Source of the DNA: Yuukianura sp. NJ FZ-2021
Lineage: Eukaryota
Length of the DNA: 64,000 nt
Direction: 5' to 3'
NCBI GenBank assembly: GCA_046563655.1
Contig: CM102283.1
Location: 744,001-808,000, forward strand
How positions within the stretch are numbered: the first letter of the stretch is position 1; each line of letters opens with the position of its first letter. The notes under the pieces were generated by a model, which made no database searches, was not told the DNA's origin, and saw only the letters and a program-made list of their open reading frames with translations. Of the stretch, positions 1 to 59,573 are shown piece by piece. A program made the position numbers and the translations under genes.

Positions 1-133
1 GCACCCGAAAACCGCAAACAAGAAAAGCCGGGTATTTTCGTGACCCCAATTGGCACTTGAAGCCAAAAGTTAATTAAATTAAGGAAACGAGGTCACAAAT
101 TTCGAGTCATTAAATTGACCTGCGGAAGCCCTT

Positions 134-141
134 TATAAATA
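134..141 (+). promoter_or_regulatory. Candidate TATA box of the secreted peptide gene
   Basis: TATAAATA about 90 nt upstream of the ATG at 223; position only, no transcript evidence. Confidence 0.4.
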
Positions 142-222
142 GAAACTTTGAGTGAATTTGTTTCGTCTCCTGTTTCAAATAGAATTTTGGTCTGGTAAAG
201 TGGGTTCTCAGAAAACTTAAAA

Positions 223-5800: not shown

Positions 5801-5933
5801 ATAATTTAAACGGGCTTCTCATCACAAAGTTTCTCCTTTTTTGATTCCCTCCAACCGCAACGACTACAGTTTGATTCCAAGCTTAAGCCTGACGGTATTT
5901 CTTTGCTAAATCTTGGTCTACAAATATTACAAA

Positions 5934-25791: not shown

Positions 25792-26182
25792 CAATGAATT
25801 ACAATGTTACGCTGCATATATTACAATGGGTGCAAGTTTAGTGTACTCCAACATTGTAAAGTACAACATTGAATTCAATTGTAGAAAAAAATCATAAACA
25901 AAACAAGATTATTGGAGAATTGTTACTATCTGTCTTAAGTTATTGTTATTTATTAATTTGACTATTTGACTCAATCTCTTGAACGATCTACTTATTCCCA
26001 GACATGGTGTACTGAAAGCTTCAGCGTCGCTGGATTCGAAAATCGAGATGGAGTTTTGTTCATTACTTGGTAAATGCAGTTGAAAGAAGAAAGAACTGAA
26101 TTAAAGATTTCTATTTTTCTAGTTTTGTCAAATCGTCAAATGATATATGTAACAATGCTTTCTGTATGTAGAGAATAAGGAA

Positions 26183-30752: not shown

Positions 30753-31472
30753 TCCGGACTGATACCGTTGTTCTTTGAATTTGTGTTCATACTAGATTCT
30801 AGTTGAAGTTGAAATAAAATATGTAAGTATTTTTAAAAGGAAAGTGTGATATTCCACTCTAATTAATTGTAGAAATCTTGAATACGGAAATCACATAACT
30901 CCAACTTGGATACGCAAAGGACTCCGAGAATTCTGAGGATTAGTGCACCGCTGGTGTTTTCTTGTTGCCGATTTGAACCTAAATTACCTCCATTGTAACC
31001 ATACAGTCTAACCAGTGACGGCATTTTTGTCGTTACAACAATGTAACGGCAATTTAGGTCATCAATTTGAACCACACAATATAACCACCCCATGGTTACG
31101 CTAGCCTTCAGACGATTACAGGAATTGCAATTATTATATGGTTACACTGGGAATGCTACATTGGGTATAACGTCACTGTACTCCAACATACAATAGAGCA
31201 TTGAATTCCCCAAGAGTACACAAAAATCATAAACAAAAACAAGGTTATTGGAAACAGTTTGTTGTATTTAATTAGTATTAATTAGACTCAGTTTCTCGGA
31301 CGATCTGATTTATGGCAATGCTGTACTGAAGCTTCAGCGTCGCTGGATTCGAAAATCAAAATGGAGTTTTGTTCATTACTTGGTAAATGGATTTAAAACA
31401 GATTTAAAGATTATGATTTTTCTCTTTTTGCCAAATGATTAACAATGTTTTCGGTATGTAGAAAATAAAGAA

Positions 31473-39147: not shown

Positions 39148-42100
39148 TCAGCTGACCTGTGACATGGAAGTAACTGAAGGGTCAATGCCCCATAGGTCAT
39201 ACCAAGGCCCACATAAGTTTCCTGTTCGTTCCGATTTTTGGTCCAATTTTGAATTTCGTTCCGGGTAGTAAAGTCGTTTTTGAATTTGGCGCCCGTATTC
39301 AAAAAGTGGCAGTTGAAATGTAGTTACTGGCCCTCGGCCACTCCCGGCATCACTTTCACTTGCAATTAACTCTAACGTATGAACTTCAGAACGAATTGAA
39401 CCTTTGACCCGCCGTCCACCTCCACTGCGCCGTCGCATTTCGTTTCTCTCAATATTGTAGTTCATGCGTGGTTCATCTTGTTCCGAAGTTCCCCGGCCAT
39501 AGTCGGGTTCACTCGGAACGATTCGGAGACTCTGCGATTTCATTCTCCGACCGAGTAGTCGTAAACTTCCTTTACTATTTTCAAATTGGCTTCTTCTGTT
39601 TTTTGATTGGTTTCCGTTTGGCATTTCCGATTCTCTGATTGGTGGCGGCGGAGGCGGGAAACACTCTTCTTCAACTTCTGTGCCTTCAATGAAAATGCTG
39701 CTCTGAGCATCATCTAAAAACTGATCTTCTTCAGCTTCCTCCTCTTCCAGATTTTGACTTTGGATTGAAGCTCCAGATGAGAAGCGCGGGAGTTGAGGCA
39801 GAGCTCTACTGCGCATTCGCATGTTGCTCGGGACAATTGGTGCCTCGGATGCAGAAAACGACTCCACCCGAAGCATGCGTTGACCTGGAGTGTGCTGTCG
39901 GCCTTTTTCGGATGCACTTCGTCTTACCGAACTGGAACTGATGGGAGGTGGAGGTGGCGGTGGAACGGACCTGCGCAATACGATACTGTTCCTTTCGTTG
40001 CTTTCCGACACTTCTGGATTTTCGTCTTTCTTGGGTCCCCGCCATGGCAGAGGGGGTGGAAGCGGGGGGAGGGGCGGCGGTTCCTTGCGGGGTTCTTCCG
40101 TCTGTGAATGCTGGGAGACTTTAATGGGCGGAGCTTGTGTTTTGTTGATCCGTGTGCAGTGACGTCCGGACGACTCTTTCAGTGGAGCAGAAGGAGGTGG
40201 ACGACGCGGTGGTGGTGGGGCGACGGGGGAGTTGAGCTGAACCACGGATGCATGCGAAGCCCAGAGGTCATCGGACTCACAAGAACCGGCAACCGAGATA
40301 GAATCGAAAGCTTGACCTTGCCGTTGCGGAAAGGCAGCGGGTGGAAGCTGGTGGGGATGTGTAGAGTTAGTGTCTTTTTTCCAAATTAAGGACTTGGTTC
40401 GACTGAGCAGTTTTTGTAAAGGACCGGCACTGGGAGAGCGGTGACTGCTTGTGGAGTTGTGGCGAGTTGCTCTCGTGGAGCGGGTCAAAGGTCGACCTCT
40501 GTGACCTCCTTCGTCATGCGCAGAAGCTTCGGAAATGTTTATAAAGCTCTGGGCTCTGCGTGGTTCGGGAATTCCTTGGTGCTTCATTCGTGCTGACTCT
40601 GATTTGTGATATTTCTCCATCAACCAAGCGTCGCCAGATTTCAAAGTGCCACTGATTTTGTTTGTCAAAGTTGAAAAAATGCAAACAAAAATGAAACGAA
40701 AAACAAAAACAAAATTAAAGCAAACGCAATCAAACTTTAAAGCAAAACTCAGAAATTTAACGAAAACAAAAAAAAATTTTTTTTTTGAGAATTTACCTAG
40801 CCGAATTTGGTTCGTCTTCAGAGTAGTCGATTTCTGGTTGCGGTGGAGCCTTGTGAATGTCATTGCTAAATCCGCTGTCATTGCTGCTGTGTAGAGAATC
40901 TGATGCTCTTCCATTGCTATTTCCACTTGGCGTCTGCGTACTAATTGACACAATTTGATTCTGCCCAGAACTCTTGGTCATGCCTTGCTCTTTGTAGGGC
41001 AGCAGAAAACCGTTGGGGAGCGGTGGAGGAGGCGGTGGCGGCATGGGCCCTTCAAGGGCCTCACAAGAAGATGTTGTGGCTGGAGACTCTGGACCCTCCG
41101 TGTACGCCACTGGAAACCAGCCTAACTTCTGTGTCCGAAGATTCTCACCATACTGCCACCCTTTACTCCGTTCACCTACAAAAAGCAGCAGTTTCAAAAA
41201 ATCCAAAATTGGGGGGGATCAATTTTTGAAAGCAATACCGATGAGAATGATGATGTCGCCTTCTAGAAATGACAATTGGTTGTCACCGCTGGAGAGGTAC
41301 GCGTAAAGTGCTTTCACGACGCTGCTCATCCCACCTAATTCATTTGGCACTGCAAGCGATTTGGGACGCTGGAGCTGCCCAGCTCTGCTGCCGTCTCCCA
41401 TCAAAGGTGGAGAAAGTTGACCCGTATAAGATGGCACGAGACTCATCTGACCTCCGTTCTTGTCGCTCATGGCCAATGACAGATCAGATTTGGCACGACT
41501 CATGGCGCCCATGCGCGGTTCTTCCTCTTCGTCCACACTTTCAAGCATCTCTGCCCCCTCCATCGACTTGCTCTTGCGCAGACGCTGTTGACCTGAACAG
41601 CAGTTTGGATCTTCCCGCCCATTTCCTCTAGGGGTACAATAAATACAGTCGTCCTCGCTTCCCTGTAAAAATGGAAACAAAATATTAAAAGCATTAAGAA
41701 ACTGTAAGAAGATTACTCATTCAAATCTAGAAATAATCTTATTTAATTTAAAGAACTAAAAGTTTTTAATTTAGTTTTCCAAGTTCAAGATAATTTGAGT
41801 TCAAAACCTTCTGCAGACGATTGATGAGCTTATTTTGCATTGGCGGGGGGAGTACTTCGCGTGACCTTGAGACTTGCATCCATTCGTCCAGACTATCCCC
41901 CAGCAGGGAGTTCCCCTTGGAGTAGAATGCCAAGTAGTGCTTGGCCAACGACGCTTGTCGTTCCAAAATAAATCCATACCGCCGTCGCTCCTCAGTTAGC
42001 GCCTTAAATTCAAAACAAAATACATAGTTTTATTACTCTAATTTTTTATGTCATACAACGATGTAACGATGTCATATTTCACATCGAATGCAAGGCGTCT

Positions 42101-45100
42101 ACCTAAAATTTGAAAATTTTCTTTTGGGAAGTTCTTTACGGTATTTCTTTTTCGACTCCGTTTAGGAAACTCACAGAAGAAATTCATAAAACTTTAGAAA
42201 TAATCTACTAAACCTAAATTAGCTCCAAAAAAAAAAATTATAACAGAAAGACATTTTTTGAAGAAAAGAAGTTCATGCTCTGAAAATTTTCAATTCTTGT
42301 TTCATTTTTTTTTTGTGCTTGTCAAAAACACGTTTCTAATCAGAACCAAGAACTGCATAATATGCCATTTGCAAAACCAGACAGACAGAGCCTGCTTTGG
42401 TTTCTGCAGAGTCTTGTTTTTCATGCACATTTTGTTCTGGTTTAGCACTGTATCTTTTTGGTGTAAATTTCAAAAAATTCTCATTTAAGAAAATTGTTGT
42501 TTTAAATTACAGGGTAATGATGGATCTTAACTTACAGTATTGAGTGAATTTTCACAAAAGAGTTCCAATTTGGTTTTCTCTTCTTCAAGCTCCTGCATCA
42601 CCTAGGTTCCACAACAACATTTCAGAGGTAAATGGGGTCAAAGTTGTTCAAAATTAGAGTTTGAATGAAGGTTTAAAAACTGTTTTGAAAAGGAGCGCCA
42701 ACAAAATTTGAAATTGAAAGTTACTCTAATTTCCTTGTCGATGGCCGTGGATGAAGTTGATTTACGGCCTTTCTTCTTCATCTTCCTGGCATTTGCTGAC
42801 GCCTTGACGAAGCCTTCAATCCTCCTCTTGTGAGACACTCCAAACTTCTTCTGCTCGTTCTAAATGCAAAGGAAAATGGAAAACATAAAGAGACGCCCAG
42901 TAGGTGTGAAAAAGACAATGGAACTCATTCATCATAAACGAGTGTCTAAGTAGACTAACTTTTACCTGTAATTAAGTATGAATTAATTAGGGGTGTGGAA
43001 TCATTTAGTTAATTGCAATTACTGTTTTAAATGTTAACGATTTCCTTTTACCTGAATCACTCGTGAGTCTCTCTCCAAGTTTGCCTCCAAAGGAACCAAA
43101 AAATCAACGTAAAAGGCCTTCAACTGAAAAAAAAAAACAATTTTTGCAAAATAATAAAAAAAACGAAAATTTTTCTTAAACATTTTTCTCTGCATTTTGC
43201 TTTATTTGAAATTTACTGACGTGTTGCCTTTTTCTTACAAACTTTTTTGTCGCTTTTTACATTTTTTCTTTACTGTTTTACATCAACATTTTTACATAAC
43301 ATTCAACTTACGGCATTCAGTTGTTGTGTGTGAATTTCCTTGAAAACTTGCGTCACTTCCATGAGAGAGGAGCCTATACAGTGACAGTGTGAGAAAACTT
43401 TTGTGAACTTCCGAAATTTCATTTTTTTTTTAAATTTAACTGTGTAACTTTTTTTTTCATTATTTTGAAATTACCAATATCCGCAGCGCATCCTAGAGAA
43501 CTTTCCTCGGCCTGTTTGGAAAGTTTGAGGAGCGAGTCCAAGTAGAGGGAAGACGCTGCAGAGGCACCTTTCAAAGCAAAACAAACGAGGAAAACAATGG
43601 TAGGCAATCGGAATTTGCAAATTGTCGTCAATTGACGAATTTGCAATTGTGTAATATGTGCAATTTGTAATTTGGTACTTAATTGCAGTGTCTTCTTTCC
43701 GACACATTATTGCGTCACTTTTACAAAATCCTAAACTTCGTGTTATACACTATGCTAAAGAAAGAGAAGACAAATGACAGTTTCATTGTTCATCGTTTGG
43801 TTGCGTAACGACGTTGTTCGTCTTAGTAAATCCTTGTGTCTGCGCAGTCGCATCATGCTCTCAAGTAGACAGAGTCAAAAATGGAACTTCATTTTGCAAA
43901 ACCTTATTTTTCAAAATTCTGTTCACATTTTGCAATTTCATCATTTCCTTACACACATTTTTTAGTAAAACTTTAAAAGGAATAAGCTTTACATTTTGTA
44001 ATTTTTCAACTTCATCCCACACCGGCTTACATTTTCATGCAGAATTCTTTAGAATTGGTTCACATTTTTTAAATCAGTGAACTGAATTCATTTCTTATTT
44101 TTTCTTGATGAACTTTTGCCATTTTCAGTTTTTGGTCTGTTTTTTTTTGCCTTTCAAAATTTTGAGTAACGAACTTACTGTGTAGAGCTTTGAGGTACGC
44201 CTTGCCCGTGGCAATCATTTCTCTAGAAGCGGGATTGAAATTCTCCAAGATGTTCTGCAAGAAAAGACCAAAGTGCTGTCAGACTTTTCAAAAAAAAAGA
44301 CAAAGCCTCTTCAAAATTTTAGTTTGAAACATGTCAGAAGTTATATAAAAACTCTTTTTTCATTTCCATGAAAAGGTTACATGAACTTCCCATGTTTTCA
44401 GTTGTTGGCGGAAGTTGGTTTCCGTTTCAACTTTACAAAAAACTTTTTGAGTATAGAGGAAGACAAATGATTCTTCCTGATCCATGAATTGCTTTGCTTT
44501 CACTTGCGTCTTAAGCTCAGTCATTATTTACGGCGGAACTTTTTGAAAGAAAAAGAAAAAAGGTTTTTTGAAATGACTTTTGATTCTTGTTTGAAATCGT
44601 AAGTGATTTGTGGCCACAGCATGAGGGGAAAACTTGACCCCAAAGTCTGGATTTCTTTATTCAGCTTTCAATGTGGGTCACTGTGCATCTCGCACGTACT
44701 TATAATACAACAACTTTTGTATTATTATTGAGCGACCAATGAGGCAGAACGTGTTTCCCTTGGAGAGAGATCGTGTTTAGACTTTGTACAGCCATGCCCT
44801 CAAGGAAGAAATAAGAAACGCATAAGCTAGCATAAGCTCAAGTGTTAATTGGAGGAGAGATCATTTAGAGTCTAATGACACAGGCTGTACATTCACTCAA
44901 GTAATTTAGAGTCCAAACATTTTAGATTTGTGTAATTTCTCTCCTGAGAGGATGAATGGACTTAATTACCCCTCATATGATCTTTGTACAAGATGTTTCA
45001 AAAATCCCAAATAAACAACTCTCTCGATCCCAAAAGACAATGAGTGTGTATAGTGTGTAATGTGTGTAAAATGGATGTGTAAAGTGTGTAAATCAATGTG

Positions 45101-45909
45101 TGTTTGAATGAGTGTCGAGACAGGTTAGGTTAACCTAATCTCACATTAATGTTAACTGAGCTCTGGCTTTTGGCATTTTGACTCCACTTTCACTTTGAGG
45201 TTTTTCGCAGAGAGTTGTTAAATGTGGACAGAGCGGAGGTGGGCGTGGTGGGACATGGTGTAAATCAACACGCGAAAACCACAAAGTAGCTGTGTTTTTA
45301 AAACTAAAACTCGTTTTCTATTTGAACACCGACAAGCAAGTGCTAAACAGGGAATTGGTTTAACCTACATACACTCAACTTGTCAAAAAAGATATTTTAT
45401 TCTCTCTTCCTCCGTTTGGAATGAAGAGTTTAGGATTGGGATAAACCCTGACATTTTGAAAATGTTCCGAAAGTGTCAAAATGTGAGTGCCAACATTTCA
45501 AAATGCCCGGAAAGTACAAACTTTAAGTGCAAACATGTTCGAAATGTCCGAAAAGTGCAAACACTTTTCATAATGTTCGGAAGGAAGCCACTGCGGAGAA
45601 AAGTCGTTAGTTTTTATTTTTATGCCAAAAACAAAATTTTCAGGGCTTTGGATATTCGCAATTTTCGGTTGGAACATTTCAATCCCCATTTCCGACTTTT
45701 TCTTTCAGGAAAAGTGTGCTAATAAAATTGTCTCTGAAAAAAGTGAAAAGTTAGAATAAAAAATTTAGTTTTTTGGAAACCTTTTTAGAAAAGTGGTTTT
45801 GTTACGAACTCCTTTGATGTTTTACTTTTATAGTTGTATTTTTGAAACTTCTGGTTTCACTAACCTTGTATACGCCGTCGATGACCTTTGTGATTTCAGT
45901 TGGATCCAT
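39148..45909 (-). CDS. IRSp53: IRSp53/BAIAP2-family I-BAR (IMD) + SH3 protein with long Pro-rich tail, ~11 exons (first 45909-45865, last 40651-39148)
   Basis: IMD exons MDPTEITKVIDGVYK / NILENFNPASREMIATGKAYLKALH / LKAFYVDFLVPLE / ALTEERRRYGFILERQ; SH3 VVKALYAYLSSGDNQLSFLEGDII..GERSKGWQYGENLRTQKLGWFPVAYT. Confidence 0.9.
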
Positions 45910-48900
45910 AATTCCCATTTTGAAAAAGAAAAATTTCAAAGGGAAACTTTGATTTCCAGTCAAAAACAGAACAAGTCACTTCGGTTCAAACCGCAACCTA
46001 ACCGATTCTTTTTTGAAAAAATTTTTCAAAAAGGTATTTGAAATTTTGGGATTCAATTGAACTAAGATCTTGTTCCAATCGACAGCAGCAGTTGGATGGC
46101 TTCAGTACAAGGACCCATGACTTGATTTGGTCGAAAGGAAGTGCTGGTGCTACGCCAATTGCAAATTGTAAATTGCAAATCTTGAAGTCCTTTGCCTTCG
46201 TCACCTCGATTCCCACTAAAAAGAAGCTTCCCAAATCAACACCACTTTCCTACAACTATCCAACTGCCCCTCAATTACCAACACAAATACAACTTAACAC
46301 TATGCACAACAACTCCTGTCCACCAACACTACTTACTTTTCAACTTCTTTTGTTTCTCGTCTCACCATCACAACATAAAGTCGCCGGTTGTAGCTCAATT
46401 TCCAATCAAAGTTAACTCGAGTGACCAAAATTGCAATTAAAGTAAACTGAGATTGTGTTTCAAGGTGACCTTTGATGTTTCACTTTTTGAAAACAAAAAC
46501 AGGACATGAATGCTGTTGTCGTTTGGAGGACGTAAGAGACACTGCGACAGATTCCCCTTCTTTCCCTGCCTTTCTCCACTCACATGGAAACTTTCACTTA
46601 CAAAAACCCACAATGGAAGTTCACAAATGCAAAGACTACCATACTTCATCACTTTAATTTACTTCATTGTTTCATTCACTAATCAATTACTTTTATTACA
46701 ATTTATTATTCTTTTATCCATATCATTCGTTTTTTGTGAAGTTTGCTTAGTCATCATTAAGTAGCAGAAGTTACTTTTATTTATTGACCTTGTCCTTCTG
46801 TCTGTCAGCTTTTATGTCGTCACGTAACCTCAGCTTTTTCCTAGATCGTTTCCATTCCTGTTCAATATATCGTTTCATGGCCATTAATTTTAGTTACTAG
46901 CGCTTTGTTATTATAAAATTTACTTTGATTTAATTACAAGTTGTTAAATTTGTTTAGTTTTAAACTAACAACTACATAAGACAAACCCTATTAAAAACAG
47001 GGCAACTTATACCACGCATAATCCGTTTAAAAGTAACACGACAGAACTAATATTTGTGAGTCTCCCATGACCTTGCAGTCCAACTGGAGCATGGAGGAAC
47101 AACCTAAAACTTAATAGTTCTGAAGATTTTTTCTGTTTCTGCTTTTGACATATTTATTGTCATGTTTTATTGCTTCCTTGTTTCCCAGAAGTTAAACACT
47201 GTAAAGGTCAGTTTTCAGGTTAAGCTACAGTTTCATGTTTTCTAGTTCCCAAAAAAGGGACCCCACCTCCTTGTTCTTTTAGTCCAGCAGTTGGACACAG
47301 ATCTGAGTTTTTTTTTACTAAAAAAAATCAGAAGGCCAACTTAGGAATAGTACCAGTATAGTCAGTGAACTTTTGAAACAGATCTTAATTCTTGTTTTAA
47401 ATAAAGCAACTCAATTCTTCCTTCCGACTTTCAAAAAAGTGTGAATAAGCTCACGATTTTTTTTAAAAATGAATTTAATTTGAATTGGTTTGTACTTTAG
47501 AAAATGGAGTGGTATTAATCGATTAAAAGTTGGGTGGTTTGCAGAGTGAAGATAGCAGGAAGTGGAAGTTGAGTAGGAATGCGGGAGGAAGTTGGCGAGG
47601 GAGAACGTGAATGAGAAAGGGAGAGGGAGATGAACTTCCAGCAGTATCCAGGATTCTGGAGAGCTGACACTGGATTTTGTGGTGATTTGGTGTTCTCTTG
47701 CACGGTGAAAGTCCTGGAGCGTGGATAAAACTTCCTGGAAGGGGAACACTTTGGATATGGCAAAGAGGAGGGGAGAAAAGAAATTAGTTTTGGTCTTTGG
47801 CGTCGATTGTAAAACTGGGAATAATATCAACAGCTAACATAAAATGAAAGAAAGCACGCGGAAAAAACATTTTTGTGAATTTTTTTTTGTTAAACTTTTG
47901 CATTTGTGAATAGTGAACCTATGATTAGTACCAATGATTTAAAAATTGTGATGCTGAAATTTCCAATTTCGTCTTTTGAAAAAACGTTAAAAGTTAATGC
48001 CTATATCGTTTTAAATGTGGAGACTAATGAACCTATTCAACATTTGTATCATGTTTTGAGATTTTAATTTTTCTTAAATTTTTTGTACCAGAGAGAGGAA
48101 GTTGTTTGTAGGACGAGCAAGGCCGAGTTGGACTGTTTCATAAGTTTGTTATAAATTGGGGTTAACTGACATTGACATCAAAAGTTTTTAGGAAAACGAG
48201 TTAGGCTAGGTGACAGGAGTAGGCTACTCAACTAAAAAAAAAACAATTGGCATATTGACGTACTTTTTGTTCAAGTTCTGTTGTGTACTAAAGGATAAAG
48301 TAGGATCAACGGAGTGGGTTGTGTCATATTCTGCCAAGAAATTGATTTGCTTCTGCAATTATCTAATCTAACGAGGATTCACTTGCAGGGCGAAACACTG
48401 CATTTGCACATGCATAACCAATGGAAATTCGAAAAAGTGCAAAATGGTGATGGGGTAATTAGAACATGAAATCAATCCATATGCCACATTCAGAAATACT
48501 TCACATTCCGTATCCTGCTGTGAATATTTGAAGTTTCCAATTTCGTCGGCGCGTAACTTGGATAACGGCTAGGTTCAGCATAAAATATTAGGGCCAGACT
48601 GACCTGCCGAATAAAATTTAAAATTTAAAATTTAAAAAAAAAATGTTCCGAAGCTCAAAATCAATCAAAAGTTTTAGCTGGCATGTATAAAAAATTTTAG
48701 GCATCATTTTGCTTCATCTGTAAGAAACAAAACAGGATAACACAATATGTTTTGTCAGATTTCATGCGCAGATCAAATGGTTTGCAGCAGCAGTAGCTTC
48801 CAAATTTTTTTGAAGTTGAACAACTGAACAAAGCACACGCCTTGTTCAGTTTAACGCTTTTTGGATCATGTTGGTTCAATATTTGTTCGAATTCAAAAAA

Positions 48901-49541
48901 CTCTTTTTGGAAAACACAGAAGCATTGAAAATTAATGGAATGCAATGAAATGATCTTTCAATTTTTGTGTAGACTCGCCCACTTCTAGTTTTATCCATTA
49001 GTACATAAGTGCTGAATTGCTTTCGGTTAATGTAGGAATGCTAAATGTCTTTTGATTGAACCACTTGAGTGTAACCACCGAAGCGAATATTTGTAATTTT
49101 TGTGACGCTCATAGATCAGATTTGTTTCAAATCGTTAAGAGTTCTATCGGGGGCTTCAGAAATGCATGAGTCAGTGCATCGTTGGAGCTCGCAAAGCCAC
49201 AAAAAGTGTCACTTTCTGTCTTCTTTCAAAAGTAAAGTATAACTCGTGTGTCGTCTTAAAGTTATGAAAGTATGGTTTTGCTACCCTAACTCCTGTTCAA
49301 GGTCCAAGGATCACAGTCCCTTTAAAATTTTCTTCGTCGTTCGTTATAAGTAGGCGGGCACAAATAGTCACTTCGTTCTCTCAGTCTTATCTTTCCGTTT
49401 GTACAAGTTCGTCCATTCTAAGATCCTAACCTTACATAACCAACTACGTAGATCCTGTTCACTTGAGTGGGAGGATTGAGAACGTGAAGTTGTGTTTGAA
49501 AGTAAGGGCTGGAGAAATTGAATTTTGAACAAAAAGCAAAC

Positions 49542-50324
49542 ATGTCAGAGGTCACGTCAAAACTGGAAGTGGATACAGATCATGTAGTGAGGTTGAACGA
49601 CCGAAATTTTCTTGTCTGGAAATTTCAAATGAGCATAGTATTGAAGGCCTCCGGACTTTGGAAAGTTGTTAGTGGGGAGGAAGTGGCTTCAAGCGACATT
49701 TGGGAAGAGAACGACATTTGTGCGCAGGCGCTCATCATTCCAACGCTGGACGACAACCAAGTACTGCTTGTCTGTGCCTGCAAAACGTCCAAGGAAATTT
49801 GGGATAAGCTGACTACTATTCATGCAGACACTTCACATATGAACAAGACGTACAACTTGACGAAATTTTTCCAGTACAAACCCAAGCCTGGTGCGTCGCT
49901 GCTCCAAATCTACTTGGATGTGGAGGAAATTGCCAACACTTTAAAGGAAATTGGAAGTCCACTGTCAGAGACCATGGTGGTGGCAAAAATACTTTGTTCT
50001 TTACCAGAAGAGCACACGACATTCAGGCAGGAGTGGGACTGGGAGACTACCGGGGAGCAAACAATGGTTAATCTACTGTCCAAAATAAAGAAAAAGGAAT
50101 TGGAACGGCAACTTCAACCGAAAAATGTCAGACGTATGACGGGATTGGCTTTCAGATCAGAACCGCAATCCACACGCCAAAACCAAGGGAAACAATGGAA
50201 CAAAAAACATGGCTGTGCAATTTGTGGAAAACCCGGGCATTGGAAGAACGATTGTCCAGGAAATGGAAGCAACGGGGGTGGTTCTTCAGGCAACGGCTGG
50301 CCGTCATTTGGAGGCGCATATTAA
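49542..50324 (+). CDS. Intact gag-only ORF of Ty1/copia type (260 aa), candidate domesticated gag
   Basis: RLNDRNFLVWKFQM..VLKASGLWKVV, ACKTSKEIWDKL, MVVAKILCSLPEEH..F..W and CCHC knuckle CAICGKPGHWKNDC, then a Gly-rich tail and stop. No protease/integrase/RT downstream; ATTAAA at 50407. Confidence 0.8.
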   Translation: MSEVTSKLEVDTDHVVRLNDRNFLVWKFQMSIVLKASGLWKVVSGEEVASSDIWEENDICAQALIIPTLDDNQVLLVCACKTSKEIWDKLTTIHADTSHMNKTYNLTKFFQYKPKPGASLLQIYLDVEEIANTLKEIGSPLSETMVVAKILCSLPEEHTTFRQEWDWETTGEQTMVNLLSKIKKKELERQLQPKNVRRMTGLAFRSEPQSTRQNQGKQWNKKHGCAICGKPGHWKNDCPGNGSNGGGSSGNGWPSFGGAY

Positions 50325-51142
50325 AGGTGTAATGACATTACGTGTAATATTTCTAGTAATAGCGGCTTACCGTTAGACGTTTATGTTAAATTACCGTAAA
50401 ACTTCTATTAAACACCCGCGCGTTTATTCAAAATCTCAACTTTTACCCCGGGCGTTTGAAGGAATTTCTAATTGGTCTAATTAATTACTGTATTGCCCAA
50501 ATTGGTTAGGTTATGTTTTATTGCCACCTCTTGTTATGTTAGTATACGTTAGTATTTGAATAGGCTAAATGCTATGTACTACTAAGATTATCGTGTAAGG
50601 TAAGATTGCTCTCGTCGTTAGGCAACAGCAGTGTTAAGTCAAAGAGTTTATAGCCAATTTCTAGCCAAGTTTTTTTTTGTTGAAAATTCATGGTATATTT
50701 TCTACTATTAATACGACTATGTTAATTAATTTTTAATTAATTAATTTTATTTGCAGTAGTGTTGGTCGATTTCGTAAATCAGTTAATTATAATTGCTAGT
50801 ATAAACTGAATTACGTGAATATCTTATCATAACTTGGCTTCATTCCTTCGGCTTTTTAGGAATACATCATTACATAATAGCTAGCTTAATTTAGAAAGGA
50901 AAATCGCATAGTTAAATTCAATTCAGGACAATTTATTCTCCTACTTAAGCAGGTTTTTCAGAGTAAATGTTTTACAAATTGTTGTATTGATTAACTATGC
51001 TAATTGGTTAACGTTGCAAAAGGAAAATTATGACGAATAATTATAAGTTTAGGATTAAACAAAATTTATATCATTTTATAGAACAATATAACAATATTAT
51101 AGTAAAAAAGGAAATTACAGACTTCGTTAGTTTCAAACTCAC

Positions 51143-53160
51143 CCGCTGAGATACATTGGATGCCTAAACTGGTACACTTTGACCATTCCGAGAACTGCAA
51201 TGACGTACATGAAAGAAGTATCTAAAAAAATAGGGCAGGTTATAGAAATTTTGAAATATGTTTTTTTTTATTTATTTATTTGAAATACTTGTTTCTAAAC
51301 CTTGCTTTTCTCTTGAAATTGAATTCAATTTTAAGCCTTACCAAATTGGAAATTGGATTGATTTGGACATATGTGATTGCTGAGGATAGGACGCCTTCCA
51401 GAATGATAGCAAGTACCGTACGTACGAATACGTACCGTATTCGTTTGAAATGTTTGCGTATATCATCGGAAGTATTTTCCGAAGAACTCCTGTGTTGTCA
51501 AAAGTGGCATCTCCATCTCCTGCGATTACGTTTGCGTCAAGCGGCGTTGAATGGAAGTCAACGGCCTAGAGGCTCCGCTGCCGGAGGCTGACAAAGACGA
51601 TGAAACCAATGCCGCAGATGACATGCCTGTGTTGGAGTCAATGTGGTTGAAATCCATAATGTAGCCCAGTGGACGGGCACATCGATAGTTGTACTAGCAC
51701 AAGTTATAGTCAACCTCACCAGTCCGACAGAGCACCTGTAATTCAAATGCCTTTGATATTCACATTTCGTCTAATGTGATTGATTAAATGGATGAATCCA
51801 AAGTATTGTTTTGGACTCTCGTGGAAGAATGTATCCATCTGGTAGGTACAACGAGTGGGTACAAAAGTAGAGCAGTGCAAAAATTTGGATGGATGGGTAC
51901 AGGCGGGGAGCCCTTGTTTACGTCAACCGAAATTACACATTGTTTGACTTACCCTGAGCAGAATCGACGCTTTCGTGGTCATACGCGGTCGCAGTATCCT
52001 CTGAATTGAACACTTTGCTCTTGATCCAGCACTGGACACTGAATAAAGTATAATAAGGTGGCATTTATATAAAAATCATTTTTGAAAGAAACGGTAAAAA
52101 TGTGAATTCTTGTATTGTTTTTCAAAAATTCTGCCAATTTTTGTGCAGACAGTACTAGTGTCTGCACAAAAATTGGCAGAATTTTCAAAAATAGTACACG
52201 AAACCAAAATTCGCCCAAAGCAACACTTATTGTGCTACCTAATTAATGTCTGATTGCATTTTTTTAAAAGTTATACTTGTGTTGTGGTTCCTGGATGGAG
52301 AAGCTGACACAGATATCTCCAGAAACATCGTCAATACTGACCAGTACCGAGTCGTCTTCAGTTTTGGGTGGATCGTATTTGTAGTGCACAGGAGCAGCCG
52401 GTGAAACCTCAACTTTTCTGGGCGGGTCGCCAATTCCAAGAAATCCTTAGCTCAAATGACACTCCAATAAAATTTCTTTTTGCAGTTCTAATTTAACGTT
52501 TAACGTGCGTACCGTATGACAATGTCGTTGGTGACAGTCAGTGAGACCAAGAAGTTGATTAGATCCACACTGCACGTTGAGATTTCAATTTGAATAGCCT
52601 GGTTCGAATCGCCTTTGCCCACTTCTGAGCAAAGAGTCTGAGTAGTAGGAAACGAAACTAAAGATATACAAAGCAGTAGCCAGTAGCGTAAGCGACAACT
52701 ATGGAGTGCACGTAGTACAGCTTACATGAACAATTGATTTACCTTTCCAGTTTGATCCTGTACTGCAATTGGGAGTTCCCAGGATAACACCGCTCGTCGT
52801 TCGCGGACACTAAACAGACTGGACAGTCCCCTGGAAAAGGCTCCATGCTAACACTCACGCGCCCGTTGGCATCCTAAATTACGCAAACTTATGTGAAAGC
52901 GAAATGCTCCGTAAATTTGAGTTTTGAAATCTATTCCTTGGAATGGTGATCCTTTGTTTCTAGAATTGCTAACTTACATATGTGTTGAATTTTCTGAATA
53001 TCGTACTGAGATCGTAGTAGAATACTTTTTGTGTTGTAGAGTTTATGAATCCGTCATGAAGTCTGCCGACCGTTCCCGTCAAAACAGTGACTTCCGGTAA
53101 ATCTCCGGTGGAAACAACAATTGAAATAAAAAATGGAAGCAACACCGCCGTGTTCCACAT
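51143..53160 (-). pseudogene. SID-1: SID-1/SIDT family transmembrane protein pseudogene (intron-containing, internally deleted, 3' truncated)
   Basis: Motifs VRERRAVLSWELP, CPVLDQEQSVQFRG, NLC*YNYRCARPLGYIMDFNH..SN.G (TAG at 51696-51694), LEGVLS..HICPNQSNFQF|DTSFMYVIAVLGMVKVYQFRHP; several frameshifts. Confidence 0.88.
52125..52185. repeat. Perfect 27-bp-arm hairpin in an intron of the SID-1 pseudogene
   Basis: aaaattctgccaatttttgtgcagaca-gtactag-tgtctgcacaaaaattggcagaatttt. Confidence 0.85.
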
Positions 53161-53758
53161 TCCGCGCGTTTCTTACCTTCCAATTCGTTTTTTCAATACT
53201 ATACAGAAATTATTCATGTATTTTCAAAATTTCTTTAACAATCTAATTAAACCGCTATATTTTTTCAAAACCGTGCATTTTTAATGTTTCGTTTAAATAC
53301 ATATATCCTAACGAAGTTTTTTCTTAACCTTTGAAGAAATTTTTAATTTACAACTTGCGTTTTTTTTTTCAAAAAAAACCTAACACATATTTGGAAAAAT
53401 CACAACTTTTAAACTTTAGAGAAAGCAATACATGAAAATAATTTTATCCAGGACGTAATTACTTTGAAATTAAAGATTTTTCGGACTAATGATTTTGAAG
53501 ACCCTACTTTTCTTACTATTCGTACTTAAAAGAACTCCCGTTCAACGTAACATTGTTACCTACGGTAACACGTTTAATACATGCTTAAATTTATACTTGT
53601 GATGTTCATTCTCATTTCATTAACGCATTAACTACACAAGAATTAAAGTTATTGCAAACTAAATTTATGATTTGGCCTTTTGTGTTTTTACCACTTTTCT
53701 AAACTGATTAATATAGAACGTAATAATAACCAAACAAAGTTTACATTTTTATAATGGA

Positions 53759-54470
53759 ATGGAAAATTTAACTACAGATATTTTAGATGAAATTTTCCTA
53801 GGTAATATTTAACTTTTAACGATTTAACCAATTTTAAAATAGCAGTAACAACTTCAGACTCTTCATTCTTAAAAGATTACACTCTAAATGTTTTTGAAAA
53901 CTCTCACGAACAATTAAAAAATCATTTACCAAATTTAGCTATTTCACTTTCTTATGTATTCATAAGAACTCATCAGTTTGTTGGATGTGCCAACATCTTT
54001 ACTAAATCATTCTTAGAAACGTTATTAAAAGATTTGTTTAAATCTACCCTTAATAAGTTATTACTTGAGACACAGATTTGTTCAAGTTCAACTCGCATTG
54101 AAGCAACTAAATTTCGCGAATTAGACAAACACTGTAGGAATGTTCTTGCTAAGAAATTTTTTATTCGTTTCCACAAGGAAATTCGAAATAAATTCTCATA
54201 TTACAAGTTAGAACAAAAATTCTGAACAAATGAATGAATTAGATTTCCCTTTTGTGGAAGAAATTTTATCAATTCTGACATCACAAGATATTATAAATTT
54301 CTATTTGGCCCTTCAAAATAATAAATTCACAAATTTACAAGTTATCATAACTACAAACTTTTAGCAATCAAGGATCAACTTTTACAACACACTGCTACAT
54401 TAAGTGCAAATCTTCGTGTCTTACGAAAATTCTACGACTATTTTTTGGGATTTCATTTTAACAGAAAAGG
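53759..54470 (+). pseudogene. Two tightly packed, decayed AT-rich ORFs with F-box-like N-termini
   Basis: MENLTTDILDEIFL..TFNDLTNF (53759, frameshifted, continues to stop at 54225) and MNELDFPFVEEILSILTSQDIINF (54230); 4 nt apart. Confidence 0.35.
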
Positions 54471-55831
54471 TTAGGTGTATCAAAGGAAGTTCAACAGTTC
54501 ACGCCCAAATTGCAGTAACCGATGCCTTATACGATGGCTTTCGCAGAAACAAAGTCTGCGCTGTCATAACTCTAGATTTATCCAAGGCTTTAGACCGGAC
54601 CATCTTACTTGAAAAGCTGTCATGGTACGAAATCGAAAGCATATGGTTTTCCTCCTATCTATCCGTACGGAAACAATTCGTCTCGCTGGGAGGGGAAAGA
54701 TCCGGAAACATAGACATTAAGCGTGGAACTCCTCGAGGCGGTATACTTTCACCTCTACTTTTCACCATCATGGTCAACGATCTCTACGAGTTCTACTGCA
54801 ATTCCAACAATTTAGCAAAAATCTCCTCATCATGTTTGCTGACGAAAACACTACGGCAGTTACAATAGACCCAAGCACGCTTCAACAATTTAAACAAGAA
54901 GTTGTAGAAAGTTTAGAATTTGTTGTTAAGTGGATGAATGAAAATCAGTTGAACATTAACCAAACTAAAAGTGCAATTCTATTATACGCTAAACCCAGTA
55001 TCCTAAAAAGTGTCGGCGCAATGAACTTTCTAATTTGCGGAGAAAGTGTTAAATCAAGAAAACAAATTACCAGCTTAGGATTAATTATTGACAGTTCAAT
55101 GAATTGGGACGCTCACATTACATCCATTTCTAAGAAAGCACTCAGTGTCATAGCGTCACTCTATTCTCTGCAAAGATTTCTTAATATGAAAAACCGGAAA
55201 ACTATGATGGAAGCGTACGTTCTTTTCAAAGTTACTAATATGTGTGAGATCTGGGGAAAAGCAAACAAGCAACACGTTAAAACTGTTATTCGTTAAATAG
55301 GTTAACTGTTATTCGGAAAAAGTTATTCGTTCTGCAGGAAGATTTGTTCTCAACGTGAAGAAATATGATCCAGTGAAAGTGAAGGTTACGACCGAATTTG
55401 AACTGGCTCTTTCCAAAACACCTAACTGATTTCCGTATTACATGGTTAGTTTCGACTATCATCTCAGGGAACTGCCCAAATTATTTTACAAATTATTTCA
55501 GCGAAGTCCAATTTACTCAATCAAGCACAACTACTAGAAAGAAAACTCATGTAGCAAATTTAAACCGGAGAATTCATCCTCAATCCTTCAAAACAAGTGG
55601 TTTTCGCAAGTGGATGGAGACGGAAGAGGATGTACGACGTCTTCCCAATCCAACTGCAATAAAAATGAAGCTTAAGGACCATTTTATGAAAGCTCAACAC
55701 AATGAACTCGAACGCCGAAATGATGTTGTGGAAGAGGACTGACAATTGAATATTTGTATTAATAATACGCAAAAAACCTATTTTAGCAATGAAAGATTAA
55801 GTAAAGTAAAGTGTCAAAGAAAGTAAAGTGT
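54470..55831 (+). mobile_element. 5'-truncated decayed non-LTR retrotransposon (CR1/L2-group RT)
   Basis: STVHA..VTD, LDLSKA, WFSSYLS.RKQFV, RGTPRGGILSPLLF.I.VNDL, MFAD, WMNENQLNIN.TKS, LGLIIDSSMNW..HI; frameshifts; short (AAAGT)n tail near 55800-55830. Confidence 0.85.
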
Positions 55832-55889
55832 AATAATTATAAGTAAGTCATCCTATATCACAATAGATTCGACGTTGGAAAAGTTTTAG

Positions 55890-56250
55890 CTTCAAAAAAT
55901 TGTTGGACACTACGTAGGGGTTGTTCCAAAACTCCACACAACAACAGTCATGTTCAAATGTGTCTGGATTGTGAATGGCACACAGTGGTAAACAATTTTT
56001 TAAAGTTTAAAATTTAACTTTTTTCATTTTAATTTTTTTAGTTTTAGTTTTTCCGATGAACCGGAGCGTTGTGTTATGATGGCGGATGACGTGCTCGACA
56101 ATTACTATTCATCCAGGGATTGAGAAGTAACAGAAATACCTGCGCAGCGGAAGATAGGAGCCGAGCTCCTTGTTCGCTGGAAATGGCCGGGCAGCAAGAA
56201 AAAGTCGTGGGAGCGAAAACTAAATCTAACAAACGCAAAAAACTAATTTC
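55890..56250 (+). pseudogene. Decayed chromodomain-encoding fragment, possibly two tandem domains
   Basis: *EVTEIPAQRKIGAELLVRWKWPGSKKKSWERKLNLTNAK at 56121-56240; upstream LQKIVGHY...VMFKCVW is weakly chromo-like. Confidence 0.5.
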
Positions 56251-56519
56251 TTTGACAAGAAGCAACACGAAGAAAGGACGATGCGGAATGGAAGCCTCAA
56301 ATGAAGCGGAAGGCGGTGGTACAACCGTCATCTTCCAAAACACTTCGCCTTGACCTATCACAAGGGTCAGCCCAAGGATAAACCTTGTATGAGTAGAGCG
56401 ACGCCTACATTCTCTTTGAAGTCGCTGAACTACTAAAGATTACCTCTGTAATTCCAAATTTAGTACAATAAAATTAGATGAGAAAAAAATTGCGTGAGAA
56501 AAAATTAATGTAGGGAGTT

Positions 56520-56708
56520 TTATATTTCCAGGTATTATATTATATGCCCTACGGGCATAGGTTATGCCTTATGGGCATATATGGTGGCCATAAGCCACCA
56601 TAGCGGCCACCCCCCTGGGACCCACCCCATAAGGGCCACCATGTATGCTGTAGAGCACTACTCAGTTTGCACTGGCCAGTACAAACTAAGTAGGGACCCT
56701 ACTACTCT
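56520..56708. mobile_element. Polinton/Maverick-like terminal repeat remnant
   Basis: Ends in CTACTACTCT (reverse complement AGAGTAGTAG, typical of Polinton termini), preceded by GC-richer short hairpins (atgccctacgggcat, tggtggccataagccacca, agtttgcactggccagtacaaact). Confidence 0.5.
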
Positions 56709-56997
56709 CCATATTCTGAAAGAAACTTAATTTTGGAAGATAAAACAACATCTTATATGTTCTAAATATTTTTTTTATTCTTTCAATTGATTTAAATTTA
56801 CTGTTAAACATTAAGGTTTTCCCAATGGATGAAGAAAGAGCTACTAAACTACCAATTCATTGGACAGCTATTTTACTTTTCGAATTAGCCCTTGCTTTTA
56901 CCATAATTATTGGCGTGGGATTACTTATTATTTTGTATTTTTACAGTTTGAATCAATAAAAATCAGTTAGTGTAAAGTTAAATTTTTTCTTACCAAA

Positions 56998-57350
56998 ATG
57001 AGTAAACCTACTAACGTTGGAATTGTTCCAACCAAATTCAGTCCTAGATTTGATGCATTCAAATGGCTACAACAGTTTGAATTAGTTAGCATAGCTAATT
57101 CTTGGGTGAATGAAATAAAGTCGTCCAGCTTCCTAATTATTTAACTGTAGTTTGTGGTATCTCAATTGGAAAAACGTACAGACAAACACAAAGCGACCGC
57201 AAAGGAAGGCGATACTGAACCAACAGTCAGATGGTCTGAACTGACTGAGGCGCTCCAGCGCGCCTTTCAAACAGTCGCAAACAAAGAAATTGCTGAACAA
57301 ATATTGAATGACAGAAAACAACATTTAGGGGAAAGCTTTGAAGATTTTTT
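56998..57350 (+). mobile_element. Frameshifted Ty3/gypsy-type gag (capsid) fragment
   Basis: KWLQQFELVSIANSW..QLPNYL..WY...WSELTEALQRAF...AEQILNDRKQHLGESFEDF. Confidence 0.65.
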
Positions 57351-58149
57351 TTGTTTATTTAATCTTGTCTAACCCCTTTCAAGGTTACCCGCCCTGCAGG
57401 CCCGAAGCCTATGGCCGGCCCACGTTACCGGGAAGACCCCTTCCTGCCCTGTCCTTCCATTGTTCGTTGAGTCTTTACGCTGCTTCTACTAACTGGAGCC
57501 GTCCAGGTTTTCTACAGGATAGCGGCGCTAGTTTCGCTGCAATCCCAGGTTCTCCAGGCAAACGCGGACAGGGTAGCCTTGGAGATATACGCACAGAGAT
57601 GCCATGTAAACGCAGCAACAACCGGTGAGTTTTCCTTTTCCTAAATTTTTATTTCTAGTTTTCTTTATCTCTATGCTAGTTTTCATTTCATTTGTAAACT
57701 TCAGCAATCAATGTTCAGCAGCACACGGTGCTGAACAAGTTGATTCGGGATACAGAAGAAAGCCGAAAGTCTGTTTACACTATGGAGGTTCAACAAGTTG
57801 CCGATTCGAAGAAGTTAGAGGAAGCAGAGGAACGTATCTAACGGCTAGAATCGGATATTCTGGACCAGATACAAGAGGATCTGGCAAAAATTGAAGAACG
57901 AGCAAAGAAACCTCTCCAAAATATCTTGTATCCCAATGTGGAAATCATCTCCGACGTATAACGTTTTTGTTTTGAGATTTTCTCGACTCAATTTGGCTTC
58001 GACTACAACTAGTTTCCTTTAAATCTGCTCATATGTTCAAGGTTTTATAAAAATAAAAATCTACCGTCGAATTCCAACAACTGAGAGTCAAAAAAAGTGT
58101 GAAATTTTATTTCAATTTCAACTTAAATTGACATTGGTGTTTGTTTTGA

Positions 58150-59400
58150 ACGCTTATGCTAGTTGAATCAAAGCTTCCACTGGAGACATAGAGGCGTGGT
58201 CATCTATATTTCATCCAAGGGAGATCATTCGGACTTGATTTCTCCGAGAATTTTGACGAGCGCCTCGAGTTCCTGACGAGTCAACACAATCTTGGGGCCT
58301 CGAGTCAATCAAAAGTCAAAATTATTTTCCAACCATTACTTGTCATGAACTGAGGGTGTCTTTGACGTTCTGCTTTGACGTAACAAAGTACCCCGTATAC
58401 ATTGACCCGGTCACTGGATTATTTGAGTAAAACTGGTAACATCGCCCAACTAGGTGAGTCGTGCGCAAACGCAGTCGCCCAGAGTCCGCCATGTATATTC
58501 CACCATTGTTGTCTTCCCAAAAATCTGCACATGATGGTTTCAGAGGCATCTCCCCAGGGGGAGTCTTGAAGACAAAGTATCCATTTCGGAGCCCGTCGTC
58601 AATCATTGGAAACAGCTGTCCTTTGACATACTCGGAAAAGTCGTCAACTTCCGAGAGCAAAATCTGGACGATTCTGGCTTTGGCGCTGAAATTATCCTTT
58701 TTAACGTAAATTTTGAAAACGTATGGGCCAAAAACAAGTGAACAATTACAAAATTTGACTTGATTTCATGATTGAACATTTTTTACATCATTGGAATGAT
58801 CAAATCCCGATTGAATGAGCAGTTTCGTAGTCAATGCAATCTTATGCAAGTCCAAACTCTCCGAAAAATTCGTTTTGAGTAAGAACGGTAAGTCCAAGAG
58901 CCGGAGCCCTAGCCAGATAAGCCATTTCGGCATTCGGTATCGTAAAGTTAAAAGCAGCCTTCATCAGTGGGGGCGGATCTTGAACTTCCAGCCCAACAAC
59001 TGCGTCAGACCCGATAGATATGAGGTCATAAGCCCGTTCAGCAGCCTCCTTTGGGTGTACGGATCTAAAGATATCCTCCTATCTAAAGATTGATTTATTT
59101 AACGCATAAATTGCGCTGGGAAAAAGTATTTTTGATGACATAATTGATTACAATTAAACAGTTTCTCTGACGTCTTTGGGAGTGGCTTTGGTGCAAATGC
59201 TGCAACTAGTTGTTCCGGAAGCTCTGTGTGAATAAAATTGAATTCGACTGTCTAATAGAGTCAAAAGGAACTATTACGTCACCTTCGTTAATGTTGGCCA
59301 TTGCAAAGCGTATGCTGGATTAGCCTTTTCGAATCTGCTCGTCAATGTCGTCTGTGCCGTTGTGGCTGAAATCAAGCATATTCATATGAAATCCGATCCA
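58150..59400 (-). pseudogene. Decayed spliced gene of unknown family
   Basis: Coding-like segments (VHPKEAAERAYDLISIG..., ORF 58343-58660) separated by short intron-like AT-rich gaps, with in-frame stops. Confidence 0.35.
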
Positions 59401-59573
59401 TGTTAATCAAAGTTGGAAAAAGTTTCAGTTTACCCGTCAAAGCACTCAATTAAAATGCTATCACGCTATCATGCTCATCTCGCATTAGTCACAAAAGTAT
59501 TATTTAAGCAAGTGTAACACTGTGTTTTGCATTACAGTCTTGATCATCTCTAGCCGTCACTTTAATTATTACG

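Follow-up and report, generated by a model that had tools for sequence, protein, structure and literature searches.

To our knowledge, all gags known to have been domesticated in animals come from Ty3/gypsy retrotransposons, with Arc, dArc, PNMA, RTL/PEG10, SCAN and Crtg1 as the examples. The sequence-only reading of the locus described here had likewise held that the well-known domesticated gags derive from Ty3/gypsy, which is true of all seven animal cases among the 14 co-option events that Wang and Han (2021) recovered from 2,011 eukaryote proteomes, but not of the four copia-derived events, in plants and fungi (PMC8321522), nor of Drt2, a copia-derived co-opted gag in yeast (PMC12530519). 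A co-opted copia gag in an animal was not found in the literature searched, the supplementary tables of PMC8321522, which may hold weaker candidates, lying outside that search. Because copia-derived co-opted gags have already been described in plants, fungi and yeast, the novelty of such a gene would lie in its animal host. The active counterpart is Drosophila Copia Gag (8vvw, 8s41; PMC11835246; bioRxiv 10.1101/2024.02.21.581285), which belongs to the same Pfam family as the protein described below and also has a two-domain capsid and one CCHC knuckle. Copia Gag comes from an active LTR element, is made as gag-pol or from a spliced gag and protease RNA, and is freed by the element's own protease; its capsids have recently been shown to travel from cell to cell and to counteract dArc1 (PMC11835246).

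The locus lies in a window, by which we mean the whole 64,000-nucleotide stretch of Yuukianura sp. NJ FZ-2021 DNA analysed here, where positions 49542..50324 of the plus strand form an open frame of 260 codons that runs from ATG to TAA with no interruption in the ORF listing and translation. This length exceeds chance, since the longest ATG-initiated ORF averaged 88 aa and reached at most 157 aa in 200 shuffles of the region 45000-55000. Pfam assigned residues 30-190 of the protein to Retrotran_gag_2 (PF14223; 107 bits against a cut-off of 27, E 9.4e-31) and residues 224-239 to zf-CCHC (23.7 bits against a cut-off of 20.8), with a sub-threshold DUF4219 at the N-terminus (21.3 against 27). The uninterrupted 260-aa ORF with copia gag motifs and a single CCHC knuckle, as noticed from the letters, is thus borne out by translation and Pfam, and so is the quoted C-terminal end, GNGWPSFGGAY followed by the stop.

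Along the plus strand, the ORF divides into a capsid N-terminal domain (CA-NTD; about residues 11-98, 49572..49835), delimited by the AlphaFold2 model and its alignment to 8vvw_A and predicted to contain helices at residues 23-36, 40-44, 52-68, 71-77 and 83-95 (pLDDT >=95); a capsid C-terminal domain (CA-CTD; about residues 99-193, 49836..50120), delimited by alignment to solved CA-CTDs; and a putative basic linker between capsid and knuckle (residues 194-224, 50121..50213), rich in K, R and Q and placed by composition and by its low confidence, with a pLDDT of 56-69 over residues 191-220. Then follow a nucleocapsid-like CCHC zinc knuckle, C225-C228-H233-C238 (50214..50255), found both by Pfam and by the regular expression C..C....H....C at residues 225-238, and a Gly/Ser/Asn-rich tail of 22 residues that ends A-Y and then TAA (50256..50324), as placed by the comparison of junction motifs given below. 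At its N-terminus the protein has the native Gag start found in its relatives. In an alignment with 74 other relatives, 43 gag columns reach 70% conservation or more among those 74; the window protein keeps 36 of these columns, a fraction of 0.84 that ranks 43 of 75 and lies near the family median of 0.86, so that the window Gag is not degraded. Codon usage of the ORF is host-like, its RSCU correlation with five host ORFs (0.56) falling among the values that these ORFs show among themselves (0.35-0.58), and its GC content is 46% against about 38% around it.

The AlphaFold2 model, built on 75 aligned homologues, reached a mean pLDDT of 87.3, with residues 11-190 at about 95 or better except for one 10-residue block averaging 89, and with weak confidence in the pre-knuckle linker and in the tail. 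Foldseek returned two significant PDB matches, both to the Drosophila Copia capsid (8vvw_A, E 5.5e-7; 8s41_A, E 2.9e-4), and VIA-align placed model residues 11..193 on 8vvw_A over 181/184 residues (Z 14.2, rmsd 5.0) and gave Z 11.2 for 8s41_A, at a structural-alignment identity of 17-21% between the window protein and the Drosophila Copia capsid. The structure prediction against retrotransposon capsids that had been proposed as a check thus came out in favour, with 8vvw_A as the match. The C-terminal part of the model (residues 98/99..189-194) also aligned with the CA-CTDs of Ty1', Ty1 p22, Drt2, the Arc C-lobe, PEG10 and MOAP1 (Z 9.8-11.2, rmsd 2.1-3.0). At the sequence level, the 270-aa 'Copia VLP protein' was matched by the family profile at E 3e-40 and by P0001 alone at E 4e-7 to 8e-7. 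A two-copy complex prediction for residues 10-200, in which the alignment was not used, ended in 'no answer' (score 0.01 against a mark of 0.32), which speaks neither for nor against binding. Judged by the model, the ORF encodes a complete copia-type Gag, with CA-NTD, CA-CTD and CCHC knuckle, that is predicted to fold like the solved Copia capsid; PF14223, the knuckle and a modelled two-domain capsid fold, the three features that define a Ty1/copia (Pseudoviridae) Gag protein, are all present. Since its length (260 aa, against 270 aa for the Copia VLP protein) and the position of its knuckle (residues 225-238, against 230-247 in Copia) are near those of the Drosophila protein, the window ORF corresponds closely to mature Gag.

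Four full-length copia polyproteins (P0006, P0009, P0015 and P0021; 1741-1880 aa), used as tblastn queries, matched the window solely at 49566-50255, that is, within gag, and gave no copia pol at E<=0.01 in the whole 64 kb. A regular-expression search of the ORF protein found no D[ST]G[ACS] protease motif, and Pfam found no RVT_2, rve or protease domain in the 26 neighbouring stop-to-stop ORFs. The TE domains in these 26 ORFs were just two, both RVT_1 of LINE type (54404-54865 and 54721-55293), and belong to a reverse transcriptase relic whose pieces lie in different frames and are split over at least three; the statement that the other TE coding relics of the window are decayed therefore holds for this one, the relic that was checked. 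Direct repeats of at least 40 nt were absent from 40000-60000, and a word-7 blastn search of 46500-49541 against 50325-54000 gave a best match of 23 nt (E 0.03); as both searches were negative, we conclude that no LTRs surround the ORF. The window yielded no tRNA genes, and one trivial inverted repeat of 15 nt was seen. What the sequence-only reading had reported as missing, namely a protease DSG motif, pol remnants and flanking direct repeats, was missing in each of these searches as well, and the locus, lacking pol and LTRs, is not an autonomous Ty1/copia LTR retrotransposon.

The place where the frame stops was compared across 27 family members (22 with knuckle and DSG, three without a regex knuckle and hence unscored, plus the window protein and the relative P0154). 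In 19 of the 22 relatives with knuckle and DSG, the stretch leading up to the protease contains an A-[F/Y] plus a hydrophobic residue, 13-25 residues ahead of the active site. The frame in the window reads G-G-A-Y and then TAA, with the stop directly after the A-[F/Y] motif and a spacing of 22 residues from knuckle to motif, the same as in P0005. A MAFFT alignment had set the tail W-P-S-F-G-G-A-Y against the W..DSGA motif of the protease; this placement was rejected in favour of the A-[F/Y] junction, with which the P0005 spacing agrees.

Relatives were collected by an exhaustive search of 1.84 billion protein representatives, which returned 4300 matches at E<=0.001; an earlier word-indexed protein search had found just two relatives, at 27-28% identity, and P0004, whose 90% cluster includes P0154, surfaced only in the exhaustive one. 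P0004/P0154 is the nearest relative of the window protein (53% identity), the nearest full polyproteins standing at 40-42%. The P0004 90% cluster has two members, on one contig each, and its complete member, P0154, is 275 aa long and ends in H-R-A-F. At the JGI locus of P0154 (L001, a metagenomic contig of 1243 bp), TAG follows straight after this A-F, the same junction motif, and all three frames are closed within 8 codons of the stop, with 96 nt of contig remaining, so that the sister too is gag-only and stops at the same codon position. The L001 copy carries a stop at codon 4 and differs from P0154 at 6 positions, 4 of them in the first 24 residues, with 249/251 identical from residue 25; its flanks are unlike those of the window. 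The exact window protein was absent from a collection of 15 billion proteins, no further clade member was found among 59 metagenome loci (next best 30% identity), no relative was present among 88 pattern matches in viral contigs, and the protein atlas returned generic copia gag/CCHC clusters only, mostly from plants.

Trees were built from the exhaustive-search matches that align to at least 190 query residues. The window protein and P0154/P0004 formed a clade in the tree of 45 rows (UFboot 100, SH-aLRT 99, stem 0.57) and in that of 89 rows (SH-aLRT 100), and all protease- or pol-bearing sequences fell outside it. Judging from these sequences, a clean stop at the junction, shared with a divergent gag-only sister, would be hard to get by random truncation, and so would the combination of no LTRs or pol, no sister copies, kept family residues and a frame free of indels. 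Taken together, these features speak for a gag that was maintained in its own right.

Over 259 codons shared by the window ORF and L001, dN/dS was 0.17 by NG86, 0.24 by LWL85 and 0.23 by maximum likelihood, with a saturated dS of 1.4-2.1. A ratio of about 0.2 is no proof of host-level selection, because dS is saturated and because the gag genes of active elements show low dN/dS as well. The proposed dN/dS check thus gave a low value, in a saturated comparison with a metagenomic relative. In the 45-row tree, the terminal branch of the window protein is about twofold longer than that of P0154 (0.82 against 0.37).

The stretch occurs in five listed sequencing runs, all DNA and none on record as RNA, which says nothing on expression either way. 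Copy number and recent variation were read from the contigs of four of these runs, aligned to 45000-55000 at >=80% likeness. Summed contig depth over the ORF was 181-237 in X2, 115-345 in X3 and 3.5-4.5 in X4, compared with 170-468, 104-338 and 4.3-7.1 over the flanks 45000-48339 and with 1344, 724 and 27 in the repeat bin 50344-50677. Since the depth of the ORF is not above that of the unique flanks, nothing suggests extra gag copies at >=80% identity, depth being a rough guide and not a copy number; no trace of a parent copia family at this identity was seen in the contigs. X4 comes from a different labelled organism and a different study, and its contigs match 45000-48492, upstream of the ORF, at about 96-97% identity, leave 48674-49341 uncovered, a gap that allows no interpretation, and include one of 787 nt that begins within the ORF and reaches the 3' flank (49884-50656). 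Because the X4 contigs cover the flank and bridge the end of the ORF, the locus predates the split from the X4 organism.

Substitutions in the ORF matched those in the upstream flanks in X2 (20/840, 2.4%, against 52/2143, 2.4%) and X3 (8/305, 2.6%, against 43/1724, 2.5%), and the same held for 49884-50656 in X4 (24/773, 3.1%, including 332 nt of 3' flank, against 117/3478, 3.4%). Gap letters, in contrast, numbered 0 in 840 nt of ORF against 37 in 2143 nt of flanks in X2, 0 in 305 nt against 33 in 1724 nt in X3, and 2 in 49884-50656 against 111 in the 3478 nt of upstream flanks in X4. Indels are thus depleted in the ORF and substitutions are not, and this is what argues most against strong constraint in recent times. 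As the substitution density of the ORF, synonymous and non-synonymous changes counted together, equals that of the flanks, recent purifying selection is visible only as missing indels.

The gag ORF and a minus-strand IRSp53-like gene (IMD exons 41769-42029 and 44072-44278, SH3 41219-41713, proline-rich exon 39148-40977) are arranged divergently, with the ORF about 5 kb upstream of that gene. Downstream of the ORF are repeats, two SID-1-like fragments and the LINE relic (54404-55293). A placement of gag in an intron of a SID-1-like gene was considered and rejected: the similarity is confined to two small pieces, which we take as gene fragments because no further exons were found in 106 additional minus-strand segments. 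Elsewhere in the window, a farnesyltransferase-beta exon (18024-18485) has at most 53% identity to any database protein and 51% to the top-ranked one, and its best matches come from molluscs, insects, crustaceans, chelicerates and springtails alike; the host is an invertebrate.

Upstream of the gag ORF, a motif scan found a candidate core promoter on the plus strand (49345..49386), consisting of TATAAG at 49345 and an Inr-like TCAGTC at 49381; the first ATG downstream of it is the start codon. The pair looks like an arthropod-type core promoter, albeit one of short motifs that could occur by chance. Past the stop, the ATTAAA that had been noted some 80 nt downstream indeed lies at 50407..50412 on the plus strand, 83 nt beyond the last stop base, and is the sole canonical poly(A) hexamer within 700 nt; its use can only be presumed, because it sits inside a repeated piece. 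This short, highly repeated segment (50392..50457) begins 68 nt past the stop and opens a repeat-rich 3' flank: depth spiked in the bin 50344-50677 in 4/4 runs, many loose contig ends fell at 50390-50392 and 50447-50457, and contig depth stayed raised from the repeat onward to about 53350.

We consider it plausible, with the chances for and against about evenly balanced, that the ORF is a copia-derived domesticated or domesticating gag in an animal, retained by selection in the host lineage. The host gene proposed by the sequence-only reading gains from the stand-alone Gag, the gag-only sister and the dN/dS of about 0.2, and loses from ORF substitutions that are not below those of the flanks. 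Substitutions equal to the flanks also count against domestication, as do the early stop in L001, its flanks unlike those of the window, and the longer branch of the window protein. Repeat-rich DNA 68 nt past the stop and a poly(A) hexamer within a repeat count against it too, and would also fit a truncation by later insertions. The main rival builds on such observations: the ORF would be an undecayed neutral relic of a fairly recent copia insertion that lost pol and LTRs by deletion and nested repeats and whose gag has not yet been hit. The equality of ORF and flank substitution density in three comparisons, the patchwork of repeat-rich DNA from 68 nt past the stop and the early stop in the related L001 copy are what such a relic would show, and in neutral simulations at 2.4% divergence the frame stayed open in 39% of runs with substitutions only and in 10% with indels; the drop to 2.4% and 0.025% at 10% divergence counts instead for retention. 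Because substitutions are not depleted in the ORF, a young neutral relic stays alive as an explanation. We nevertheless hold it to be rather unlikely, given an ORF that ends exactly at the conserved gag/protease junction and not in flanking DNA, a sister ORF from a different organism, 53% identical, that has the same end motif and also lacks protease, no LTR remnant on either side, no parent-family trace at >=80% identity in the contigs, an ORF free of gap letters where the flanks have 1.7-1.9%, and an ORF common to a second labelled organism that is about 3% diverged.

The shared end can also be read as a feature of an element. Two gag-only ORFs with the same end in different organisms, together with the low dN/dS expected of a gag that still serves an element, would suit a selfish gag-only retroelement lineage, whether as a non-autonomous element moved in trans or as a product of retrocopying from a gag-only subgenomic RNA; a spliced short RNA of Drosophila copia exists, though it encodes gag and protease (PMC11835246). 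Such a lineage is improbable in view of the missing LTRs, the lack of a visible poly(A) tract after either ORF in the sequence read, an ORF depth without sign of more than one copy, a P0004 cluster of just two members on one contig each, and the failure to find a further clade member in 59 metagenome loci (the next at 30%) or in viral contigs. Two of the co-opted gag genes of Wang and Han (2021) are fused to host genes (PMC8321522), and the ORF could by the same token be one exon of a larger host gene rather than free-standing; with an in-frame stop 12 codons before the ATG, the native Gag N-terminus at the ORF start, and no Pfam domain in plus-strand ORFs within 3 kb on either side, we regard this as very improbable.

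Under the preferred reading, a gag kept by the host, the window ORF and P0154/L001 probably share a gag-only ancestor. Its fullest form is one that we put forward tentatively and think somewhat doubtful: this would be the first animal gene from a Ty1/copia gag, would have arisen once by the junction stop, and would have been kept gag-only in at least two divergent invertebrate lineages as an RNA-packaging capsid or a lattice-poisoning guard. In the preferred reading itself, the gene descends from the gag of a Ty1/copia (Pseudoviridae) element; protease, integrase and reverse transcriptase are gone, as are both LTRs, and what is kept is the complete mature Gag, with its two-domain capsid, basic linker, single CCHC knuckle and a tail ending where the protease normally begins. 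The TATA/Inr-like motifs at 49345/49381 would drive transcription, and the transcript would be polyadenylated near 50407. Multimerisation through the capsid domains and RNA binding through the knuckle may both still work. The protein could enclose RNA in particles like those of Arc or Copia; alternatively, by analogy with yeast p22 and Drt2, it could enter into mixed assemblies with the Gag of incoming copia-type elements and so poison their lattice. The two modes would fit the locus equally well.

Among known systems, Arc, dArc1, PNMA2 and PEG10 are likewise stand-alone animal gag genes with a two-domain capsid of retroviral type, and the model aligned with PNMA2 at Z 9.9, with dArc2 at 9.2 and with dArc1 at 8.6. 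The Arc-type genes come from Ty3/gypsy, whereas the window gene is copia-type by Pfam and by its best sequence and structure matches, and capsid assembly and RNA transfer have been demonstrated for Arc-type genes, whereas for the window gene we only infer them. The TR-GAG elements of plants are terminal-repeat retrotransposons that have gag as their sole coding capacity, carry LTRs and are multi-copy; the window ORF is gag-only alike, but neither LTRs nor, with depth as a rough guide, multiple copies were seen at it. Drt2 and Ty1 p22/p18 are copia-type Gag derivatives that poison the capsid lattice of related elements (PMC12530519; 9rxy, 7nli), and the CA-CTD fold of Drt2 and p22 matches model residues 98/99-189/192 at Z 9.8-9.9. 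The active portion of Drt2, p22 and p18 is the capsid CTD alone, whereas the window gene keeps a full Gag including NTD and knuckle, and a restriction role for it would be by analogy. Compared with Drosophila Copia Gag, which is cut free from a longer product, the window ORF ends by a stop codon at the junction and has no protease, pol or LTRs. Parallels in origin are Crtg9 and Crtg10 of plants and Crtg12 and Crtg13 of fungi, host genes which likewise come from Ty1/copia gag without pol or LTRs and are under selection, and which differ from the window gene in that its host is an animal (PMC8321522). That survey defines a Crtg by synteny across at least two host families, or a phylogeny congruent with that of the hosts, plus selection (PMC8321522), whereas the window locus has been seen in the close relative X4 only, at about 3% divergence. 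Because both capsid domains and the knuckle lie within 260 residues, assembly and RNA-binding assays would be straightforward, and the gene, if kept by its host, would be a natural system in which to test whether capsids were co-opted convergently from a second retrotransposon superfamily.

Immediately downstream of the copia-type gag-only ORF (49542-50324, plus strand, 260 aa), a segment of about 56-66 nt at 50392-50457 is, judged by contig depth, repeated a very high number of times genome-wide. Depth here, summed over window bins and not a copy number, rises 3-7 fold in the contigs of all four DNA sequencing runs compared, and in every one of them dozens of contigs end loose at 50390-50392 and 50447-50457. 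The ATTAAA closest to the gag stop codon lies inside this repeated segment, for which a fold search did not find a tRNA-like fold. On the other side of the ORF, a contig from X4, a run labelled as a second organism from a different study and about 3% diverged, joins window position 49414 back to 49379 with five extra letters, which suggests that this taxon carries a small duplication (49379-49414) where the gag gene's 5' UTR or promoter would putatively lie.

Among the clear host genes, the one lying closest to the gag ORF, in divergent orientation, is an IRSp53/BAIAP2-like gene on the minus strand (39148-44278), comprising IMD-domain exons (41769-42029 and 44072-44278), an SH3 domain (41219-41713) and a long proline-rich exon (39148-40977). 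Two small minus-strand pieces at 51142-51267 and 51529-51693 match stretches 340-363 and 252-276 of the SID-1 dsRNA-channel profile in Pfam (28.6 and 27.0 bits versus a cut-off of 28.7) and follow each other in the correct order for a minus-strand gene. Contig depth is raised over both, and no more SID-1-like exons were found in the 106 further segments searched; the pieces are probably duplicated gene fragments. Further downstream, a decayed LINE-type reverse transcriptase on the plus strand (53806-55742), multi-copy as judged by contig depth, retains RVT_1 matches in differing frames at 54404-54865 (E 2.3e-7) and 54721-55293 (E 0.004).

Elsewhere in the window, there is a tandemly duplicated plus-strand gene pair (26153-30484 and 31443-37270), each gene having several exons that carry Myb/SANT-like (Myb_DNA-bind_5) repeats and, after them, a C2H2 zinc-finger exon of ~370-390 aa. 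An intronless plus-strand ORF of 860 aa (5910-8492) had no match in a Pfam search; its near-identical upstream paralogue on the same strand (1679-4240) is split over four frames and is apparently a pseudogene copy. Two arrays of a 164-bp satellite, at 9431-12630 (19.6 copies) and, in the opposite orientation, at 13986-15470 (9.1 copies), both with matches of 89-95%, account for the repetitive pseudo-ORFs at 10104-12710 and 15278-15607.

Judged by its protein sequence, the host seems to be without a close sequenced relative in the collection compared: a farnesyltransferase-beta exon (18024-18485, plus strand; Prenyltrans, E 4.9e-26) shares at most 53% identity with any of 490 database homologues (51% with the top-ranked match), the best matches being scattered among molluscs, insects, crustaceans, ticks and springtails.

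The gag-only sister ORF on the metagenomic contig L001 (positions 320-1147) has a stop as its fourth codon and is either a pseudogenised copy or a case of translation from a downstream start. Compared with P0154, the complete 275-aa sister protein, it has six differences: four in residues 1-24 and only two in the other 251 residues.
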